From positions 1-9,120 of the IMG/VR virus record IMGVR_UViG_2778261447_000001: a stretch of DNA of 9,120 bases, one strand, 5' to 3'. Under the pieces are notes generated by a model. That model searched no databases. It saw only the letters and a program-made list of their open reading frames with translations, and had not been told where the DNA came from. Below, piece by piece: positions 1 through 9,120 of the stretch. Made by a program: the position numbers and the translations under genes. Every line of letters begins with the position of its first letter. Position 1 is the first letter of the stretch. Source of the DNA: a virus. Its lineage: Duplodnaviria > Heunggongvirae > Uroviricota > Caudoviricetes.

Positions 1-130
1 ATGCTTCCATCGGAAACGATGATCTGGCAGCCTGAGTTCACAGATAAAACACTCTCCAGGAAACCCGGGGCGGTTCAATCAGGTTAAATTCACCAATACC
101 TACTGGCTGCAACAGCAGACCAAACAGGCG

Positions 131-553
131 TTGTATAACGGAGCCACACCAATTAGCTTCACAGCAACGGTTACTGCTGATGCTGATTCAGACAGCAGTG
201 GCGATGTGACGGTTACGCTTTCTGGTGTTCCGATTTATGACACTACAAACCCGCAGTACAACTCTGTAAGTCGTCAGGTAGCGGCAGGCGATGCCGTATC
301 TGTGGTAGGCACTGCTAGCCAGACAATGAAGCCAAACCTGTTCTATAACAAGTTCTTCTGTGGACTTGGCTCTATCCCACTACCGAAACTGCACAGTATT
401 GATTCTGCTGTTGCAACATATGAAGGTTTCTCTATCCGCGTACATAAATACGCAGATGGCGATGCCAACGTGCAAAAAATGCGCTTCGACTTACTGCCTG
501 CATATGTGTGCTTTAACCCTCACATGGGCGGTCAGTTCTTCGGTAATCCGTAA
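131..553 (+). CDS. Probable 3' portion of the major capsid (coat) gene; start codon unresolved. The frame is open from nt 23, and the first candidate start is TTG at 131.
   Basis: Long ORF with gene-like, beta-rich composition (T/S/V/G/A) ending at TAA 551-553, followed at once by a strong intrinsic terminator, as expected after a highly expressed capsid gene. It sits just upstream of the gp4-like gene, as coat does in P22-like phages. Similarity to my recalled P22 coat C-terminus is only loose. No ATG/GTG with a Shine-Dalgarno lies in frame. Confidence 0.5.
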   Translation: MYNGATPISFTATVTADADSDSSGDVTVTLSGVPIYDTTNPQYNSVSRQVAAGDAVSVVGTASQTMKPNLFYNKFFCGLGSIPLPKLHSIDSAVATYEGFSIRVHKYADGDANVQKMRFDLLPAYVCFNPHMGGQFFGNP

Positions 554-557
554 TAAC

Positions 558-584
558 AAGGGGCTTACGCCCCTTTTATGTTTT
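558..584 (+). terminator. Rho-independent terminator after the coat-like ORF
   Basis: Perfect 7-bp GC-rich stem AAGGGGC (558-564), loop TTAC, GCCCCTT (569-575), followed by T-tract TTTTATGTTTT. Confidence 0.65.
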
Positions 585-594
585 AAGGAAAAAT

Positions 595-780
595 ATGGAT
601 CGCATGAGTGTATTCCTTGCCGCAGATAACGAATCCGGGCATGTACAGGCCGTTATCGCAGAAAAAGACTTCCAGTTTTTCGAAAAGTTGGGCTTTGTTG
701 CCTCAGTTGATGAATTGAAACCGACCAGTAAGCGAGGTCGTAAGGCGGAAGACAATGGCAACAGTACTGACAAAGGGTGA
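595..780 (+). CDS. Small acidic hypothetical protein (61 aa)
   Basis: ATG at 595 preceded by a strong Shine-Dalgarno (AAGGAAAAATATG) immediately after the terminator. Overlaps the gp4-like start by 26 nt in another frame. No recognisable domain. Confidence 0.4.
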   Translation: MDRMSVFLAADNESGHVQAVIAEKDFQFFEKLGFVASVDELKPTSKRGRKAEDNGNSTDKG

Positions 781-1237
781 GATCGTCCTTTTTGCGCTTC
801 GTAAGTTTGCTATTGCTTCTAATGCATCGCTGACTGATGTTGAGCCGCAATCAATTGAAGATGGTGTAAATGATCTGGAAGATATGATGTCCGAGTGGAT
901 GATTAACCCCGGCGACATTGGTTACGCTTTCGCAACTGGAGATGAGCAACCATTACCAGATGATGAGTCAGGTCTTCCAAGAAAATACAAACACGCAGCA
1001 GGCTATCAGTTATTGCTGAGAATGCTATCTGATTACAGCCTTGAGCCAACTCCGCAAGTTCTCAGTAACGCCCAACGCTCATATGATGCCTTGATGACCG
1101 ACACTCTGGTTGTTCCTTCAATGCGACGACGTGGAGATTTTCCTGTAGGACAGGGTAATAAATATGACGTGTTTACATCTGACCGATATTATCCAGGCAA
1201 TCTCCCTCTGATTGATGGCGATATCCCAAACGCATAG
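755..1237 (+). CDS. P22 gp4-like head completion / tail accessory protein (160 aa)
   Basis: Motif ASLTDVEPQS and overall layout match my recollection of P22 gp4 (166 aa; ...ATLTDVEPQS...). Sits at the expected position before the gp10-like gene. Shine-Dalgarno AAGGCGGA upstream of the ATG. Confidence 0.8.
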   Translation: MATVLTKGEIVLFALRKFAIASNASLTDVEPQSIEDGVNDLEDMMSEWMINPGDIGYAFATGDEQPLPDDESGLPRKYKHAAGYQLLLRMLSDYSLEPTPQVLSNAQRSYDALMTDTLVVPSMRRRGDFPVGQGNKYDVFTSDRYYPGNLPLIDGDIPNA

Positions 1238-1245
1238 GTGAATAA

Positions 1246-2664
1246 ATGCCGATTCAGCAACTTCCGCTTATGAAAGGTGTCGGCAAAGACTTTCGAAACG
1301 CCGACTATATCGACTATCTGCCAGTGAATATGCTGGCTACACCCAAAGAAATCCTCAACAGCAGCGGATATCTTCGCTCATTCCCGGGCATTGCCAAACG
1401 TTCTGATGTGAACGGCGTATCGCGAGGCGTCGAGTACAACATGGCGCAGAATGCTGTTTATCGCGTGTGTGGTGGCAAGCTGTATAAGGGCGAAAGTGAA
1501 GTCGGTGATGTTGCCGGAAGTGGTCGCGTATCAATGGCGCATGGTCGGACATCACAGGCGGTAGGCGTTAATGGTCAACTGGTCGAGTATCGTTATGATG
1601 GCACGGTTAAAACAGTCTCAAACTGGCCTACAGACAGCGGATTCACGCAGTATGAGTTAGGTTCAGTTCGCGACATTACGCGCTTACGTGGGCGTTATGC
1701 GTGGTCAAAAGACGGAACTGATTCATGGTTTATCACTGACCTTGAAGACGAATCGCACCCTGACCGATACAGTGCACAATATCGCGCAGAATCGCAGCCG
1801 GACGGTATCCTCGGTATCGGGACATGGCGAGACTTCATCGTCTGCTTTGGTTCATCGACTATTGAATATTTCTCCCTGACTGGTGCAACCACTGTTGGTG
1901 CTGCTTTGTATGTCGCACAGCCATCACTGATGGTGCAGAAAGGTATTGCCGGGACTTACTGCAAAACGCCATTCGCTGATTCTTATGCGTTCATCAGCAA
2001 TCCGGCAACAGGTGCTCCGTCTGTATACATCATCGGATCCGGTCAGGTTTCACCAATCGCCAGCGCGAGCATTGAGAAAATTCTCCGCTCCTACACTGCT
2101 GATGAACTGGCTGATGGTGTGATGGAGTCTCTGCGATTTGATGCGCATGAGCTGCTGATTATCCATCTTCCGCGCCATGTTCTGGTGTACGACGCATCTT
2201 CAAGCGCCAATGGTCCGCAATGGTGTGTGCTGAAAACAGGTCTGTATGACGATGTGTACCGCGCTATCGACTTCATTTACGAAGGCAATCAGATAACGTG
2301 CGGCGATAAGCTGGAGTCCGTGACCGGGAAATTGCAATTCGACATCAGCAGCCAGTATGGGCTACAGCAAGAACACCTGCTGTTTACTCCGTTGTTCAAA
2401 GCGGATAACGCCAGATGCTTCGATCTGGAGGTGGAATCATCCACTGGCGTAGCTCAGTACGCCGACCGCCTGTTCCTCTCTGCAACCACTGACGGCATCA
2501 ATTACGGTCGTGAGCAGATGATTGAGCAGAATGAACCGTTCGTTTACGACAAACGCGTTTTGTGGAAGCGTGTCGGGCGCATCAGGAAAAATGTCGGCTT
2601 CAAATTGCGCGTTATCACTAAGTCACCTGTCACTCTGTCTGGCTGCCAGATAAGGATTGAGTAA
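1246..2664 (+). CDS. P22 gp10-like tail accessory (tail hub) protein, 472 aa
   Basis: Same length as P22 gp10 (472 aa) and same position between the gp4-like and needle genes. Shine-Dalgarno AGGTGA before the ATG. Stop overlaps the next start (TAATG). Confidence 0.8.
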
Positions 2665-3365
2665 TGGCGGATTCGAATCTCAATGTGCCGGTAATCATCC
2701 AAGCTACGCGGCTCGATACATCAATCCTTCCACGCAATATATTCAGCCAGTCTTACCTGCTGTATGTCATAAATCAGGGTGCTGATGTTGGCGCAATTGC
2801 CGGGAAGGCAAATCAGGCTGGTCAGGGCGCTTACGATGCTCAGGTAAAAAACGATGAACAGGACGTCGAACTGGCAGATCACGACGCAAGAATCACCGCA
2901 AACACAAAAGCGATAAATCTCCTTGAGGTCAGGTTAACAACCGCCGAAGGGAAGATAGTCGTACTGCGTAGCGATGTTGATTACTTGCTGGATGAGGTTA
3001 TCGATATTCAGGCGCATCTGGTCACTGTTGACCAAAGACTGGATGGCGTAGAAAGCGATGTATCTGACATTAAGAGTGATTACGTATCGAAAACCGTAAC
3101 CGAATCGCAGTCTCTTGCGTCACCGCTGGATGTAAAAACATCATATTCAGTTGATGGAATTCAGGTCGTTGGAGCAAGGCAGACCGGATGGACTGCAGCC
3201 ACAGGTACGCCACTTCTTGGCTCATTCAACGCAAACCAGTCATACACTGTCGGCACTACGTACACGCAATCCGAAGTCGCAGCTCTCGCTACAGGTTTGC
3301 AGCAGGCGCGGCAGCGTATTCTGGCGCTTGAAACGGCACTTAGATTACATGGGCTGATTGACTGA
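2664..3365 (+). CDS. P22 gp26-like tail needle (plug) protein, 233 aa
   Basis: N-terminus ([25 protein letters not shown]...[35 protein letters not shown]) and C-terminus (...[15 protein letters not shown]...[21 protein letters not shown]) match recalled P22 gp26. Identical length of 233 aa. Start overlaps the gp10-like stop. Confidence 0.9.
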
Positions 3366-3820
3366 TGATTACATTCAAACCAACGCGAAACATCGACCTG
3401 ATCGAAGCAGTAGGAAATCACCCTGACATTATCGCCGGGAGCAACAACGGTGATGGATACGACTACAAACCTGATTGCCGTTACTTTGAGGTGAACGTGC
3501 ACGGGCAGTTCGGCGGCATTGTTTACTATCAGGAGATTCAGCCGCTGACATTCGATTGCCACGCAATGTACCTGCCAGAGATTCGCGGCTTCAGCAAGGA
3601 AATCGGGCTGGCGTTCTGGCGATACATTCTGACTAACACCACCGTTCAGTGCGTCACATCGTTCGCCGCACGCAAATTCCGCCACGGGCAGATTTACTGC
3701 GCAATGATTGGCCTTAAGCGTGTCGGAACCATCAAGAAATACTTTAAAGGCGTTGATGACGTGACTTTTTACAGCGCCACACGCGAAGAACTAATCGACT
3801 TCCTGAATCACGGGAGATAG
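3365..3820 (+). CDS. Hypothetical virion protein at the P22 gene-14 position (151 aa)
   Basis: ORF translationally coupled to the needle gene (TGATG overlap) and lying between the needle and gp7-like genes. I do not confidently recognise the sequence. Confidence 0.55.
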   Translation: MITFKPTRNIDLIEAVGNHPDIIAGSNNGDGYDYKPDCRYFEVNVHGQFGGIVYYQEIQPLTFDCHAMYLPEIRGFSKEIGLAFWRYILTNTTVQCVTSFAARKFRHGQIYCAMIGLKRVGTIKKYFKGVDDVTFYSATREELIDFLNHGR

Positions 3821-3822
3821 CC

Positions 3823-4515
3823 ATGTTATATGCATTTAAGCTGGGCAGAAAACTGCGCGGCGAGGAACCTTATTGCCCTGAAAAAGGCGGGAAAGGTGGC
3901 AGTTCTGATAAAAGCGCAAAGTATGCAGCAGAAGCTCAGAAGTATGCCGCAGACCTGCAAAATCAGCAGTGGCAGACGATCATGAAAAACCTTGCTCCGT
4001 TCACGCCTCTTGCGGAGCAGTATGTTAACCAGCTTCAGAACCTTTCCAGTTTAGAAGGTCAGGGGCAGGCACTTAATCAGTATTACAACTCTCAGCAGTA
4101 TAAAGACCTTGCAGGTCAGGCTCGTTACCAGAGTCTTGCTGCTGCGGAGGCTACGGGAGGACTTGGTTCGACAGCCACAAGCAATCAACTGGCTACGATC
4201 GCGCCGACTCTCGGTCAGTCTTGGTTGTCAAACCAGATGAGCAATTACAACAATCTGGCAAACGTTGGGCTTGGTGCTCTGCAAGGTCAGGCAAACGCCG
4301 GGCAGACGTACGCCAACAACATGAGCAGCATTGCACAGCAAAGCGCAGCTCTTGCCGCTGCTAATGCCAATAAACCATCAAGTCTTCAGACTGCAATTAG
4401 CGGTGGCACGTCTGGTGCGATTGCCGGTGCAGGTCTTGCCAGCCTTTTGGGAACATCAACGCCTTGGGGCGCTGGCATTGGTGCTGGTATCGGATTGCTT
4501 GGCTCGTTGTTTTAA
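3823..4515 (+). CDS. P22 gp7-like ejection (E) protein, 230 aa
   Basis: Position and size match P22 gp7 (229 aa). Q/N/A-rich body with a Gly/Ala-rich hydrophobic C-terminal tail (GAIAGAGLASLLG...GAGIGAGIGLLGSLF). Shine-Dalgarno GGGAGA before the ATG. Confidence 0.75.
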   Translation: MLYAFKLGRKLRGEEPYCPEKGGKGGSSDKSAKYAAEAQKYAADLQNQQWQTIMKNLAPFTPLAEQYVNQLQNLSSLEGQGQALNQYYNSQQYKDLAGQARYQSLAAAEATGGLGSTATSNQLATIAPTLGQSWLSNQMSNYNNLANVGLGALQGQANAGQTYANNMSSIAQQSAALAAANANKPSSLQTAISGGTSGAIAGAGLASLLGTSTPWGAGIGAGIGLLGSLF

Positions 4516-4524
4516 GGGGTAATC

Positions 4525-5856
4525 ATGGCTACTTGGCAAGGAACAAACGGCGGATTGTTGGCTGGTATCGGCGGCGTCAACTCAAACGCTCCGAGCGTAA
4601 ATGACATCGGCAATACGCTTCAGCTTATCAGGCAGAACAATGATATTGAGCGTTCAGGCGCTAACAATGTTGGGCTGACTGCTTTGCAAGGCCTTTCAGG
4701 TATTGCGGGGGTGTTTCAGCAGGAAAAGCAGGCTCAGCGGCAGAAAGAATTTCAGCAGGCATACGCTAATGCTTATGCGTCTGGTGATCGCGGTGCTTTG
4801 CGTCAGTTAGCTACTCAATATCCAGACCAGATTGAATCCGTTCGTAAAGGCATGGGATTCATTGATGAAGAGCAGCGCAATTCTATCGGCACCTTAGCGG
4901 CTGGCGCACGCCTTGCGTCATCGTCTCCTGATGCGATGGCTAACTGGCTGCAATCTAACGCCGGTGAGTTAGCTCGTGTTGGCGTTAATCCTCAGGATGT
5001 CGCTCAGATGTACCAACAGAACCCGCAGCAGTTCGGCGAATTTGTCGATCACCTGGGGATGGCCAGTCTCGGACCCGAAAAATACTTTGACCTTCAGGAT
5101 AAAATGCAGGGTCGCCAGGTGACCATGCGCGGTCAGGATCTGGATTCGCAAACCGCCGCCCGGAATCAGGCAATCACAATGCGTGGGCAAGATATCCAGG
5201 CAAATTTAGGTCAGCAGCGCATTAATCTGGACGCAGAAACAAACCGCATTAACAACGAAAATAAGCACCTTGACCGGATGCTATCAGCAGAAACTAACGA
5301 CCTGAAGCGCCAGGAAATACAGAGCCGCATAGCAGCCAACAACCAGAAGTTGCAGCAGAAGCAGCAAGAGCTAAATGATGGCTACAAAGACGGCATCAAC
5401 ACTCTCACAACCAGCATGTTCACTCTGAACGATATCGTTAATTCTCCTGCACTTAAGAGCATTACAGGCTTACGTGGAGCAATCCCCAACGTTCCAGGCT
5501 CACAAGCTGCAGACACTCAGGCGCGACTTGATACCTTTAAATCCCAAGCATACCTGACAGCGGTTCAGGCCATGCGAGGCATGGGCGCACTTTCTGATGC
5601 CGAGGGCAAAAAGCTCGACCAGGCTGTTGGTTCGCTGCAGAACTCACAGAGCGAGGAGTCCTTTCGTCGCAACGCTGGCGTCATCCTGAACACGCTCAAC
5701 CAGAAGCGTAATGAGGCGGTTGGTAAGTACGTTCAGCAAAACGGTATCAAGCGAGTGGAAGCGCCTCAGGCTTCTATAGATTACCTGAAGCAGCACCCCG
5801 AGCTGTCAATCGACTTCATTAATCGCTACGGATATCTTCCATCTTTGGGGCAGTAA
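4525..5856 (+). CDS. P22 gp20-like ejection protein, 443 aa
   Basis: Second of three consecutive ejection-protein genes (P22 order 7-20-16). Shine-Dalgarno AAGGGG before the ATG. Q/N-rich with internal short repeats. Confidence 0.7.
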   Translation: MATWQGTNGGLLAGIGGVNSNAPSVNDIGNTLQLIRQNNDIERSGANNVGLTALQGLSGIAGVFQQEKQAQRQKEFQQAYANAYASGDRGALRQLATQYPDQIESVRKGMGFIDEEQRNSIGTLAAGARLASSSPDAMANWLQSNAGELARVGVNPQDVAQMYQQNPQQFGEFVDHLGMASLGPEKYFDLQDKMQGRQVTMRGQDLDSQTAARNQAITMRGQDIQANLGQQRINLDAETNRINNENKHLDRMLSAETNDLKRQEIQSRIAANNQKLQQKQQELNDGYKDGINTLTTSMFTLNDIVNSPALKSITGLRGAIPNVPGSQAADTQARLDTFKSQAYLTAVQAMRGMGALSDAEGKKLDQAVGSLQNSQSEESFRRNAGVILNTLNQKRNEAVGKYVQQNGIKRVEAPQASIDYLKQHPELSIDFINRYGYLPSLGQ

Positions 5857-8250
5857 ATGGCTAATTACCGTGATTTGTTAGAGCAGGCTGGCGCACGTTA
5901 CGGTGTGCCAGAAGGGTTGATGACTGCACTGGGTGCCAAGGAGTCTTCTTACAACCCTGCCGCAGTAAGCTCCGCCGGGGCTGTAGGATTGACTCAGGTC
6001 ATGCCTGGGACATGGCGTGATATGGGTTATACCGATGAGCAAATGCAAAACCCCGAATATCAGGCTGACGCTGGCGCGCGCTATCTGGCAAAGATGTACC
6101 AGCAGTTTGGTAACTGGCGTGACGCTCTTCAGGCTTATCACGACGGTCCCGGCAACGTTATGAAGGCAAAGCGTGGTGAATATACGCCAGGACCTGAAGG
6201 CCGCGGTTACGTTGATGATCGCTTTGCTCAATGGGCGGGTGACCCGGTGACAGACTCAACAGTCGAACAGCGCGCCACCTCTGCAAAGGTACATCCTCAG
6301 CAAGACCCTAACAACCCGTTTGCACAACTGGAAGCACAGTCATCCGAACAAGTATCGGCATCAGGCGTGCAGTCAGACCCAAATAATCCATTTGCTCAGA
6401 TTGAGCAGCAGGCAGCCAGTCAGCAGCCACCTCAACCCGTAAGTTCTGTCGCACCGAAACCTGTTCAGCAGCAAGGCGGAATAATGTCTGACCTTGGTAA
6501 TGGACTTGCTGAAACCGGGCGCGGCTTACTACAGGCAGGAATCAACGTAGCGAACATACCTTCTGAACTCACTGATGCTGTAACAAGCGCGGCGGCTTGG
6601 GCTGGCGGTAAACTCGGTATTGGCGATGGTACATATCAACCAGCACCACGAGTAACAACGCAGGGATTAGAGCAGGACTTTGGCCTTAAGCAAGGCGCGC
6701 TGACTCCACAAACGACAGAGGGAAGGGTATTTGCTGAAGCATTGCCTTACCTCACTCCCGCTGGCATTGAGAGAGCGGCAACACAGGCACCAACACTTGC
6801 TGGTCGAATTGCTCAGGGGGCAACTCGCCTTCTAGCAGAAAACGCAGTTGGATCACTTGCTGCAAATAGTGCGAAAGATGATGCGGAAGCACTCGCCACC
6901 GATTTAGGCGTTGGTGTACTTGCTGGCGGTGCTATTAACGCTGCCGGACGTGGATTAGGTGCTGCTTATCGTGGCGTTCGTGGTGCTATCGCGCCAGAAG
7001 CGCAGCAGGCTATCAGATTTGCAGAGCGTGAAGGAGTTCCTCTGCACACCACAGACCTGTTACAACCCACTTCCCGCGTCGGAAAAATGGCGCAGACTAC
7101 AGCAGAAAATATCCCTCTGGCTGGCACAAGCGGAATGAGAGCAACGCAACAGGAAGCGAGAAGCCAGTTGGTGCAGAGATTTGCCGATAAATTCGGTGAG
7201 TATGATCCAGCGGTTGTTATTGACAGCCTTAAAGCGAAAACATCAGGAATTCGTCGTGCCGCCGGTAATCGACTGGAGCAGGTACAGAATGCAATGGCAG
7301 GAATCAACATTCAACCTGCCAGAGCAATTCAGCAGATAGATACTGAGATATCTAACCTGCAGAAGCTTGGTAAGGTCGCTGATAACGAGACGATTTCAAA
7401 ACTTCAATCCTATCGTGATGAGCTTATTCGCAATGCTGGTCCTGATGGTCCGGTAAATCTGGATTTGAAGCAATTAAGCGATCTACGCAGCCAGTTCAGA
7501 ATGGACGTGAAGGGTGAGCGACCAGTGTTACCAAACCGCTCCGATGCCGCCATTCAGCGCGTTTACAAGGCGATGACAGACGATATCAATGGTGCCATTG
7601 GTCAGAATCTTGGCAATGATACTCTCCGTAAATATCAGCAGGCCAATGCCGTCTACGCTGACGAAGCAGCGAAACTAAAGAATACCAGGCTGAAGAATGT
7701 TCTCATGAAAGGCGACCTGACACCGGAAGTTGTCAACAACATGCTATTCAGCAAGAACAAATCGGAAATTAAGACGCTGTATAACTCAGTTGGTCGTGTT
7801 GGCAGGGCGCAAATGCGCAATGGCATCATTGGGAAGGCGATGGAGAAATCTGGCGGATCCCCTGACCAGTTCCTTCGACAGCTTAACATCCTGCAAAACC
7901 AGACTGGCATCACATTTAAGGGGCAGGACGCTGCTTATCTGAAAGGATTGAAAAACTACCTGCAATCCACGCAGCAGGCTGCAAAAGCGGCAGTAACAAC
8001 ACCAACAGGGCAGCAAACCATCCCGTTCATTATCGGATATGGGACAGCAATGAACCCTGCGACAACTGGCGCAGCAGTAAGCTACGGACTTCTTACTCGC
8101 GCCTATGAGAGTGAGCCATTCAGAAATGCAATGCTCCGAATGGCAAACACCCCACGCGGATCAACAGCGTTTGAGAAAGCCATGCAGCAGGCGCAAAAGG
8201 CCATTAACGCTCTGACGCAGGGGGCTAAGTCTGATGCGTTGTCAGAATAG
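5857..8250 (+). CDS. gp16-like ejection protein with an N-terminal lytic transglycosylase (SLT/GH23) domain, 797 aa
   Basis: ATG abuts the gp20-like stop (TAAATG). The N-terminal ~120 aa carry SLT motifs: catalytic Glu in AKESSYNP, then GLTQVMPGTW and AYHDGPGN. The remaining ~600 aa match the size and position of P22 gp16 (609 aa). Confidence 0.85.
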   Translation: MANYRDLLEQAGARYGVPEGLMTALGAKESSYNPAAVSSAGAVGLTQVMPGTWRDMGYTDEQMQNPEYQADAGARYLAKMYQQFGNWRDALQAYHDGPGNVMKAKRGEYTPGPEGRGYVDDRFAQWAGDPVTDSTVEQRATSAKVHPQQDPNNPFAQLEAQSSEQVSASGVQSDPNNPFAQIEQQAASQQPPQPVSSVAPKPVQQQGGIMSDLGNGLAETGRGLLQAGINVANIPSELTDAVTSAAAWAGGKLGIGDGTYQPAPRVTTQGLEQDFGLKQGALTPQTTEGRVFAEALPYLTPAGIERAATQAPTLAGRIAQGATRLLAENAVGSLAANSAKDDAEALATDLGVGVLAGGAINAAGRGLGAAYRGVRGAIAPEAQQAIRFAEREGVPLHTTDLLQPTSRVGKMAQTTAENIPLAGTSGMRATQQEARSQLVQRFADKFGEYDPAVVIDSLKAKTSGIRRAAGNRLEQVQNAMAGINIQPARAIQQIDTEISNLQKLGKVADNETISKLQSYRDELIRNAGPDGPVNLDLKQLSDLRSQFRMDVKGERPVLPNRSDAAIQRVYKAMTDDINGAIGQNLGNDTLRKYQQANAVYADEAAKLKNTRLKNVLMKGDLTPEVVNNMLFSKNKSEIKTLYNSVGRVGRAQMRNGIIGKAMEKSGGSPDQFLRQLNILQNQTGITFKGQDAAYLKGLKNYLQSTQQAAKAAVTTPTGQQTIPFIIGYGTAMNPATTGAAVSYGLLTRAYESEPFRNAMLRMANTPRGSTAFEKAMQQAQKAINALTQGAKSDALSE
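6304..6411 (+). repeat. Tandem duplication of a short peptide motif (DPNNPFAQ[L/I]E) in the linker of the gp16-like protein, period 72 nt
   Basis: gaccctaacaacccgtttgcacaactggaa (6304-) and gacccaaataatccatttgctcagattgag (6376-) encode QDPNNPFAQLE and SDPNNPFAQIE. The two copies differ mostly at synonymous positions. Confidence 0.6.
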
Positions 8251-8319
8251 CTTCGCAAACACCAGGAACGTGCAAAAACCAAATATGTAGAACGCAATAT
8301 TCAGCATATCTCTTTGCAT
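8242..8319 (-). CDS. Candidate small hydrophobic peptide (25 aa, MQRDMLNIAFYIFGFCTFLVFAKLF)
   Basis: Hand-translated - strand ORF. ATG lies 4 nt after a GGAGG Shine-Dalgarno and 20 nt after the mnt stop. Predicted single transmembrane-like helix. Overlaps the last 9 nt of the gp16-like gene. Too short to judge by composition. Confidence 0.25.
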   Translation of the reverse strand: MQRDMLNIAFYIFGFCTFLVFAKLF

Positions 8320-8339
8320 AAATCCTCCGTAATGGATGG

Positions 8340-8600
8340 TTATCTGCTGTCTTTTTTATATAGCTTCTTGAGCGTATCAAAGACAATTTTCTTAACCATA
8401 TCAGATTGTTGTTCTGCCATACGCTCTGCATCGTCAATGTAAACTGATGCAGAGCTTTGTTTAGCCAACGATTCTTCAATCGCTGCAATTATCTCTGAGT
8501 TCAGCGACCTGTTATTCATCTTCGCGCGCTGTTTAATTTTCGCGTGAAGTTCATGCGGAAGTCTCAAGTGAAACTGCGCCTCGTCGTATTTGCTGTACAT
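8340..8600 (-). CDS. mnt: Mnt-like ribbon-helix-helix (Arc/MetJ family) repressor, 86 aa
   Basis: C-terminal half DAERMAEQQSDMVKKIVFDTLKKLYKK closely matches recalled P22 Mnt (DAERLADEQSELVKKMVFDTLKDLYKK). The N-terminal strand FHLRLPHELHAKIKQRAKMNNRSLNSEI matches the RHH pattern (P22: FNFRMPMEVREKLKFRAEANGRSMNSEL). Start chosen at the internal ATG (8600), which has GAGG 8 nt upstream; the upstream ATG at 8633 has no Shine-Dalgarno. Confidence 0.8.
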   Translation of the reverse strand: MYSKYDEAQFHLRLPHELHAKIKQRAKMNNRSLNSEIIAAIEESLAKQSSASVYIDDAERMAEQQSDMVKKIVFDTLKKLYKKDSR

Positions 8601-8721
8601 CCTTGATGCCTCACCAGTTGGGTGGAATGGCATCGTAACTTACTGGATAAATACTCAATAGTACCATTTCGGTATGCAATCACATCATGGTTGCATCATA
8701 TCATTCGTCTGGAGCAATGAA
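8601..8721. promoter_or_regulatory. Divergent intergenic control region between mnt (-) and tailspike (+); expected site of the mnt promoter and operator
   Basis: 121-bp AT-rich spacer between divergent starts. Contains an inverted repeat ATGCAA-N11-TTGCAT (8674-8696) and a short CACC-N5-GGTG dyad (about 8611-8623). The promoter hexamers are not confidently assignable by eye. Confidence 0.35.
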
Positions 8722-9045
8722 ATGTCAGATATCACCGCAAATGTTGTGGTAAGCATGCCTTCGCAACTCTTCACTATGGCGCGTTCTTTTAAAGCGGTTG
8801 CCAATGGCAAAATTTATATCGGAAAAATTGACACTGACCCGGTAAATCCTGAAAACCAGATTCAGGTTTATATAGAGAACGAAGACGGCTCTCACGTTCC
8901 TGTTTCGCAACCAATCATCATTAATGCTGCTGGATATCCGGTATATAACGGACAGATTGCCAAGTTCGTAACTGTGCAAGGCCACTCTATGGCTGTTTAT
9001 GATGCGTACGGTTCGCAGCAGTTCTATTTCCCGAATGTACTTAAG
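8722..9045 (+). pseudogene. Tailspike gene (P22 gp9-like), N-terminal head-binding domain only; truncated after codon 108 by an IS2 insertion
   Basis: Translation [108 protein letters not shown] is near-identical to recalled P22 tailspike residues 1-108. Shine-Dalgarno GGAG lies 7 nt before the ATG at 8722. After ...FPNVLK the sequence switches to IS2 terminal sequence. Confidence 0.85.
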
Positions 9046-9120
9046 TGGATTTGCCCCTATATTTCCAGACATCTGTTATCACTTAACCCATTACAAGCCC
9101 GCTGCCGCAGATATTCCCGT
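9046..9120 (-). mobile_element. IS2 insertion sequence terminus (partial; the element continues past the window end), transposase on the - strand
   Basis: 9046-9120 is the reverse complement of the recalled IS2 end ...CGGGAATATCTGCGGCAGCGGGCTTGTAATGGGTTAAGTGATAACAGATGTCTGGAAATATAGGGGCAAATCCA. On the - strand it encodes the transposase OrfB C-terminus ...[20 protein letters not shown] with its stop at 9057-9059. Confidence 0.8.

Follow-up and report, generated by a model that had tools for sequence, protein, structure and literature searches.

An IS629 end abutting a truncated coat gene accounts for the broken reading frame at the edge of a P22-like prophage contig

The coat-gene reading frame that appears discontinuous at the start of the phage DNA studied here is interrupted by an insertion sequence. 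The window, by which we mean the whole stretch of 9,120 nucleotides analysed, is an entire draft contig (NOCS01000111.1, 9120 bp) of assembly GCA_002549495.1. It begins with the end of an IS629 element, and this is followed directly by the 3' part of a major capsid (coat) gene of the P22/Sf6 type. What lies between positions 77 and 78 is a junction of IS629 with the coat gene rather than a frameshift, a conclusion that we hold with very high confidence. In the preliminary description of this sequence the discontinuity was ascribed to a +1 insertion in the capsid gene, to a sequencing error in a homopolymer or, as a less favoured possibility, to a programmed frameshift. The correction called for is that the contig-edge 'frameshift' in this phage structural gene is an IS junction combined with a break of short-read assembly; there is neither sequencing error nor recoding at the window start. 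An IS-disrupted coat pseudogene is textbook, already known biology, and the case described here is one more example of IS629 inactivating a prophage, an ordinary route of inactivation. The features on which the analysis is based are collected in Table 1.

Table 1. Position of IS, coat-gene and tailspike features in the window
Feature	Position	Strand	Evidence and remarks
Last 77 bp of IS629 (IS3 family)	1..77	+	Transposase-sense strand; 77/77 identity to the 3' end of IS629 in AP000400.1
3' end of IS629 orfB: last 10 codons (ASIGNDDLAA) and TGA stop	3..35	+	End of the transposase CDS in AP000400.1 corresponds to window position 35
Right terminal inverted repeat (IRR) of IS629, 25 bp, terminal ...GGTTCA	53..77	+	AP000400.1 feature 'inverted repeat from right end of IS629'
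P22/Sf6-type major capsid (coat) gene, 3' 476 nt	78..553	+	Frame 2; bases 2-3 of codon 266, codons 267-423, stop
ATC, candidate right copy of a 3-bp target-site duplication	78..80	+	Also the first bases of the coat remnant
140-codon ORF starting with TTG	131..553	+	Inside the coat remnant; predicted as a gene in the contig's public entry
Intrinsic terminator t_coat	558..585	+	GC-rich hairpin AAGGGGCTTACGCCCCTT followed by a T-run
Tailspike gene, first 108 codons (head-binding domain)	8722..9046	+	PF09008 Head_binding, profile positions 1-108 of 113, E 2e-65
Terminal ~74 bp of IS2, to the contig end	9047..9120	.	100% identity to annotated IS2, e.g. U82084.1 'insertion sequence:IS2'

Results

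The window starts with the right end of IS629

Elements of the IS3 family have terminal inverted repeats with characteristic 5'-TG...CA-3' ends. A complete IS629 is about 1310 bp long and carries orfA and orfB, which are joined via a programmed -1 frameshift. When the window was compared with the 1310-bp reference IS629 in AP000400.1 (E. coli O157:H7 Sakai, VT1 prophage region), positions 1-77 aligned without any indel to its very 3' terminus, and the same terminal 77 bp, the same orfB stop and the same 25-bp IRR were found in both sequences. The peptide encoded in frame 3 is identical in all 10 positions to residues 287-296 of the 296-aa orfB product and is then terminated; since the end of the orfB CDS in AP000400.1 is equivalent to window position 35, the TGA at 33-35 is the orfB stop. 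The transposase gene thus ends just inside the right end of the element, at window 3-35, and the terminal repeat annotated for IS629 coincides with window 53-77. The reverse complement of this repeat, TGAACCGCCCCGG..., agrees with the left end of IS629 (start of IRL). Whereas AP000400.1 contains the full 1310-bp element, the contig carries its 3' end alone, and the remainder would lie upstream, past the contig end. We infer that the copy is of full length.

Searches with the first 600 nucleotides of the window gave a consistent picture. In a megablast against phage records, the segment from 1 to approximately 80 matched IS629/IS3-family transposase loci in Stx phages, and 11 out of 11 long phage matches began exactly at base 78. 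These long matches, which included N7, Gally, HK620, HF4s and Sf6, spanned positions 78-600, mostly with 98-99% identity; the match with phage NM-3 ended at 575 and had 95% identity. The annotation of the relatives beneath the matches reads 'capsid protein' followed by 'terminator'. In complete E. coli genomes the same query matched at 24,900 sites, distributed over 6,251 records, mostly through its first ~80 nt, while the coat part of the query was present in just 239 complete E. coli genomes. Matches of the coat part in intact prophages begin, like those in phages, at base 78.

The coat gene is represented by its C-terminal part

Window 78-553 was aligned with nucleotides 797-1272 of Sf6 gene 5 without gaps, and 468 of the 476 nucleotides were identical. 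At the protein level 154 of 157 residues are the same, the substitutions being N302D, G306S and E334A. The homology to the P22-like major capsid family is supported by a Pfam match to PF11651 (P22_CoatProtein, E 9e-50), which covers only profile positions 273-423 of 423, the C-terminal 36%. The 3' ends of Sf6 gene 5, HK620 gene 5 and the N7 head protein gene (all PF11651) have 98-99% DNA identity to this segment, and these phages share with the window both the terminator behind the coat gene and the genes further downstream; the annotations of Sf6 and HK620 have t_coat in the equivalent position. In intact relatives the coat gene is a single continuous ORF of 423 codons. Compared with the coat genes of Sf6, HK620 and N7, the window lacks codons 1-265 and the first base of codon 266, and what it contains is therefore a gene fragment.

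The fragment keeps the last 157 codons, the N-terminal 63% of the protein being absent, and it has neither a start codon nor a ribosome-binding site. An ORF of about 423 codons with a start of its own was not found in the window: the homology begins at codon 266, and upstream of it there is IS629. Window 78-553 is therefore a pseudogene fragment. The earlier suggestion that the coat gene is discontinuous and non-functional was borne out in this form, with the IS629 end abutting the coat gene from codon 266 onwards.

The location of the boundary could be determined to the base. The last IS base, at position 77, is A, whereas Sf6 has G at the equivalent position, which fixes the boundary exactly between 77 and 78. 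The insertion point is accordingly between nucleotides 796 and 797 of the coat gene, in codon 266 of 423, the transposase gene of IS629 being oriented like the coat gene.

The 140-codon ORF at 131-553 is a gene-caller artefact and a coat pseudogene fragment. An independent gene initiated at TTG 131 was considered and rejected: in all intact relatives the TTG lies within the coat gene and encodes Leu, and there is no ribosome-binding site. The arrangement that had been named as incompatible with a broken coat gene, an upstream coat gene ending cleanly and an independently started gene at 131-553, is not present. In the annotation, 131-553 should be changed to coat pseudogene fragment and 1-77 to IS629 end. 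The 90%-identity protein cluster of the 140-aa coat fragment has E. coli proteins as its neighbours and includes proteins of 80-103 aa named 'phage holin, lambda family'; the presence of these holin-named members is probably a clustering or naming artefact.

Downstream of the terminator a small gene (595-780) overlaps the gp4-like gene (755-1237) by 26 nt. Sf6 genes 6 and 7 are arranged in the same way, and the overlap is ordinary.

The open frames at the window start do not result from a frameshift

The observations from which the preliminary description had started were reproduced. Stops occur in all forward frames near the window start, namely TGA 20-22 in frame 2, TGA 33-35 in frame 3 and TAA 85-87 in frame 1. 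Frame 2 contains no stop between 23 and its TAA at 551-553 (531 nt), and the first ATG, GTG or TTG in it is TTG 131, preceded by cagcagaccaaacaggcg, which contains no Shine-Dalgarno sequence. According to our own calculation, the chance of meeting a stop in each of the three frames within 29 codons is about 0.4 in random sequence. The three-frame stops looked odd because positions 1-77 were assumed to be coat sequence, and this premise is false.

It had also been noticed that the coat frame could be restored by fusing frame 1 to frame 2, and this led to the proposal that a +1 insertion or a homopolymer error in the CCCGGGG run (64-70) had shifted the coat gene from the former to the latter. 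Mechanically the joining is possible: frame 1 is open at 1-84, both frames are open across 23-84, and removal of one base from 64-70 fuses them. The frame-1 peptide, however, has no counterpart in the coat protein. When the conceptual fusion was aligned with the Sf6 coat protein, the alignment started only at fusion residue 26 (Sf6 D266/Q267), and the 25 'frame-1' residues matched nothing. No coat gene resembles positions 1-77, and within 1-35 the coding frame is frame 3, that of orfB. The CCCGGGG run lies inside the IRR of IS629 and is identical to that of the reference element, with no indel, which leaves room neither for an inserted base nor for a sequencing error at this place. The IS629 identity of 1-77 and the fusion alignment together refute the +1 insertion and the homopolymer error, to which we assign a negligible probability.

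The overlap of two open frames, and nothing more, could also be cited for a programmed ribosomal frameshift that leads to a C-terminally extended capsid variant. Against this stand the single continuous coat ORFs of Sf6, HK620, N7 and the 239 E. coli genomes, in which the sequence upstream of the junction is different, and the nature of the supposed slippery region, which belongs to an inverted repeat of IS629. The two-frame arrangement is not conserved in relatives and its frame-1 part has no coat homology; programmed frameshifting is refuted, its probability being for practical purposes nil.

A misjoin is a very improbable source of the junction

The junction is derived from a short-read draft assembly, and this raises the question of whether the IS629 end was misjoined to a coat fragment while the real coat gene is intact. 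Such an artefact would be in line with the draft nature of the contig, both ends of which lie in multi-copy IS elements, and with the length of the 77-bp overhang, which resembles a k-mer; 77 is a k-mer size in common use in assemblers. On the other hand, the join falls precisely on the ...TTCA with which the IS629 inverted repeat ends, where a random misjoin is not expected, and the coincidence of the join with the biological end of IS629 makes a misjoin unlikely. Moreover, an intact coat gene would have been assembled through as unique sequence and would not end a contig at codon 266, and an event of this kind is on record in a finished genome (see below). Taking all this into account, we consider an assembly artefact very improbable. 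The contig would rather stop at the IS for the reason that the short-read assembler could not resolve multi-copy repeats.

Simple insertion or rearrangement

Given that the junction is genuine, the probable course is simple insertion of IS629 and retention of the coat gene's 5' half. On this view the target was codon 266 of the coat gene in an Sf6/HK620-like (P22-like) prophage, and the element cut off the final 37% of the gene from promoter, start codon and N-terminal 63%. As the remnant lacks a start codon and a ribosome-binding site and the N-terminal 63% is missing, no capsid can be made. The simple insertion would be accompanied by a 3-bp duplication of ATC, and the 5' part of the coat gene would reside on another contig. 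The left junction expected in this case consists of the coat gene up to nt 799 (...GCTGGTGATC), with ATC duplicated, and the left end of IS629, TGAACCGCCCCGG...; in other words, TGAACCGCCCC should follow directly after coat nt 1-799.

We infer simple insertion from a precedent in E. coli E2865 and from the habits of IS629, which favours prophage sites and makes 3-4 bp duplications (PMC3271280). In the E2865 genome (NZ_AP018808.1, 4768-6077 of the locus examined) a complete 1310-bp IS629-type element is located in the coat gene of a closely related prophage and is flanked by a 3-bp duplication, TGC on both sides. The prophage kind, the gene and the orientation of the IS are the same as in the window, and the interruption of the coat gene leaves an ORF for the N-terminal part and a pseudogene fragment for the C-terminal part. 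In E2865 the element entered the gene 240 bp upstream of the window's site, behind the His-Ala codons of ...GLHASDQ..., and a few bases distinguish the two IS copies. The E2865 insertion is an event independent of the one described here, and the pair suggests recurrent IS629 insertions in the P22-like coat gene. With regard to the choice of site, 62% of the IS629 copies in O157 genomes are located in prophages (PMC3271280), so that the prophage-gene location of the window copy is typical. Inactivation of prophages by IS629 is well documented in E. coli and Shigella (PMC3271280).

A variant of the IS-junction explanation is that a deletion or rearrangement associated with IS629, either an adjacent deletion or recombination between two IS629 copies, removed or relocated the first 796 nt of the coat gene, possibly along with head genes lying upstream. 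This would be compatible with the absence of the left junction from the contig. In O157 genomes matching duplications were found at only 21 of 47 IS629 sites (PMC3271280), which means that rearranged IS629 junctions are common. The searches for the N-terminal counterpart of the remnant point in the same direction. No truncated cluster of ~275 aa was found among the top 120 homologues of a query composed of Sf6 coat residues 1-266 and the predicted IS629 read-through tail, and an exact look-up in the protein collection returned no match for two guessed, Sf6-based coat::IS629 fusions of 275 and 282 aa, for which duplications of 3 and 4 bp had been assumed. However, fragments of this kind may hide within 90% clusters of full-length coat proteins, and since the fusion look-ups were exact and the N-terminus was guessed, a miss says little. 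In addition, the E2865 element demonstrates that simple insertion in the coat gene does occur. On balance, deletion or rearrangement appears rather unlikely, but it is an alternative to be reckoned with, and simple insertion is the reading that we prefer.

The exact junction was not encountered elsewhere: none of the matches of an 81-nt query (window 40-120) in 5,426 complete E. coli genomes covered the junction, and a 45-nt pattern had 0 matches in species-representative genomes.

One could also imagine that read-through from IS629, together with an internal start (TTG 131 or ATG 326), yields a C-terminal coat fragment that disturbs the capsid assembly of superinfecting P22-like phages. If this were true, the coat remnant would be a retained, domesticated defence function and not debris. 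No observation supports such a role, and we regard it as extremely improbable.

The opposite end of the contig

Homology of the window to P22-like phages spans exactly positions 78-9046. Between the two IS ends lie the coat remnant, homologues of P22 gp4, gp10, gp26, gp14, gp7, gp20 and gp16, an Mnt-like repressor and a tailspike stub. A 9-kb block of late genes between the ends of multi-copy IS elements is a signature of short-read assembly breaking at repeats.

At the right end, IS2 cuts the tailspike gene at 9046/9047, just after the 108-residue head-binding domain. This second insertion agrees with the earlier view that the prophage is decaying. Through the combination of the coat disruption and the IS2 cut in the tailspike gene the prophage is defective; a P22-like prophage in this state cannot make virions.

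A mosaic boundary was located at approximately 1236-1240, between the gp4-like and gp10-like genes. To the left of it, 78-1240 is Sf6/HK620/N7-like (98-99%), and to the right, 1240-9046 matches phage IME10 in one piece (96.1%) and Sf6 in four pieces. Between the gp16-like and the tailspike genes there is a gene for an Arc/Mnt-type ribbon-helix-helix repressor of 86 aa (8340-8600, - strand; Pfam), next to which no ant-like gene is visible among the precomputed Pfam matches.
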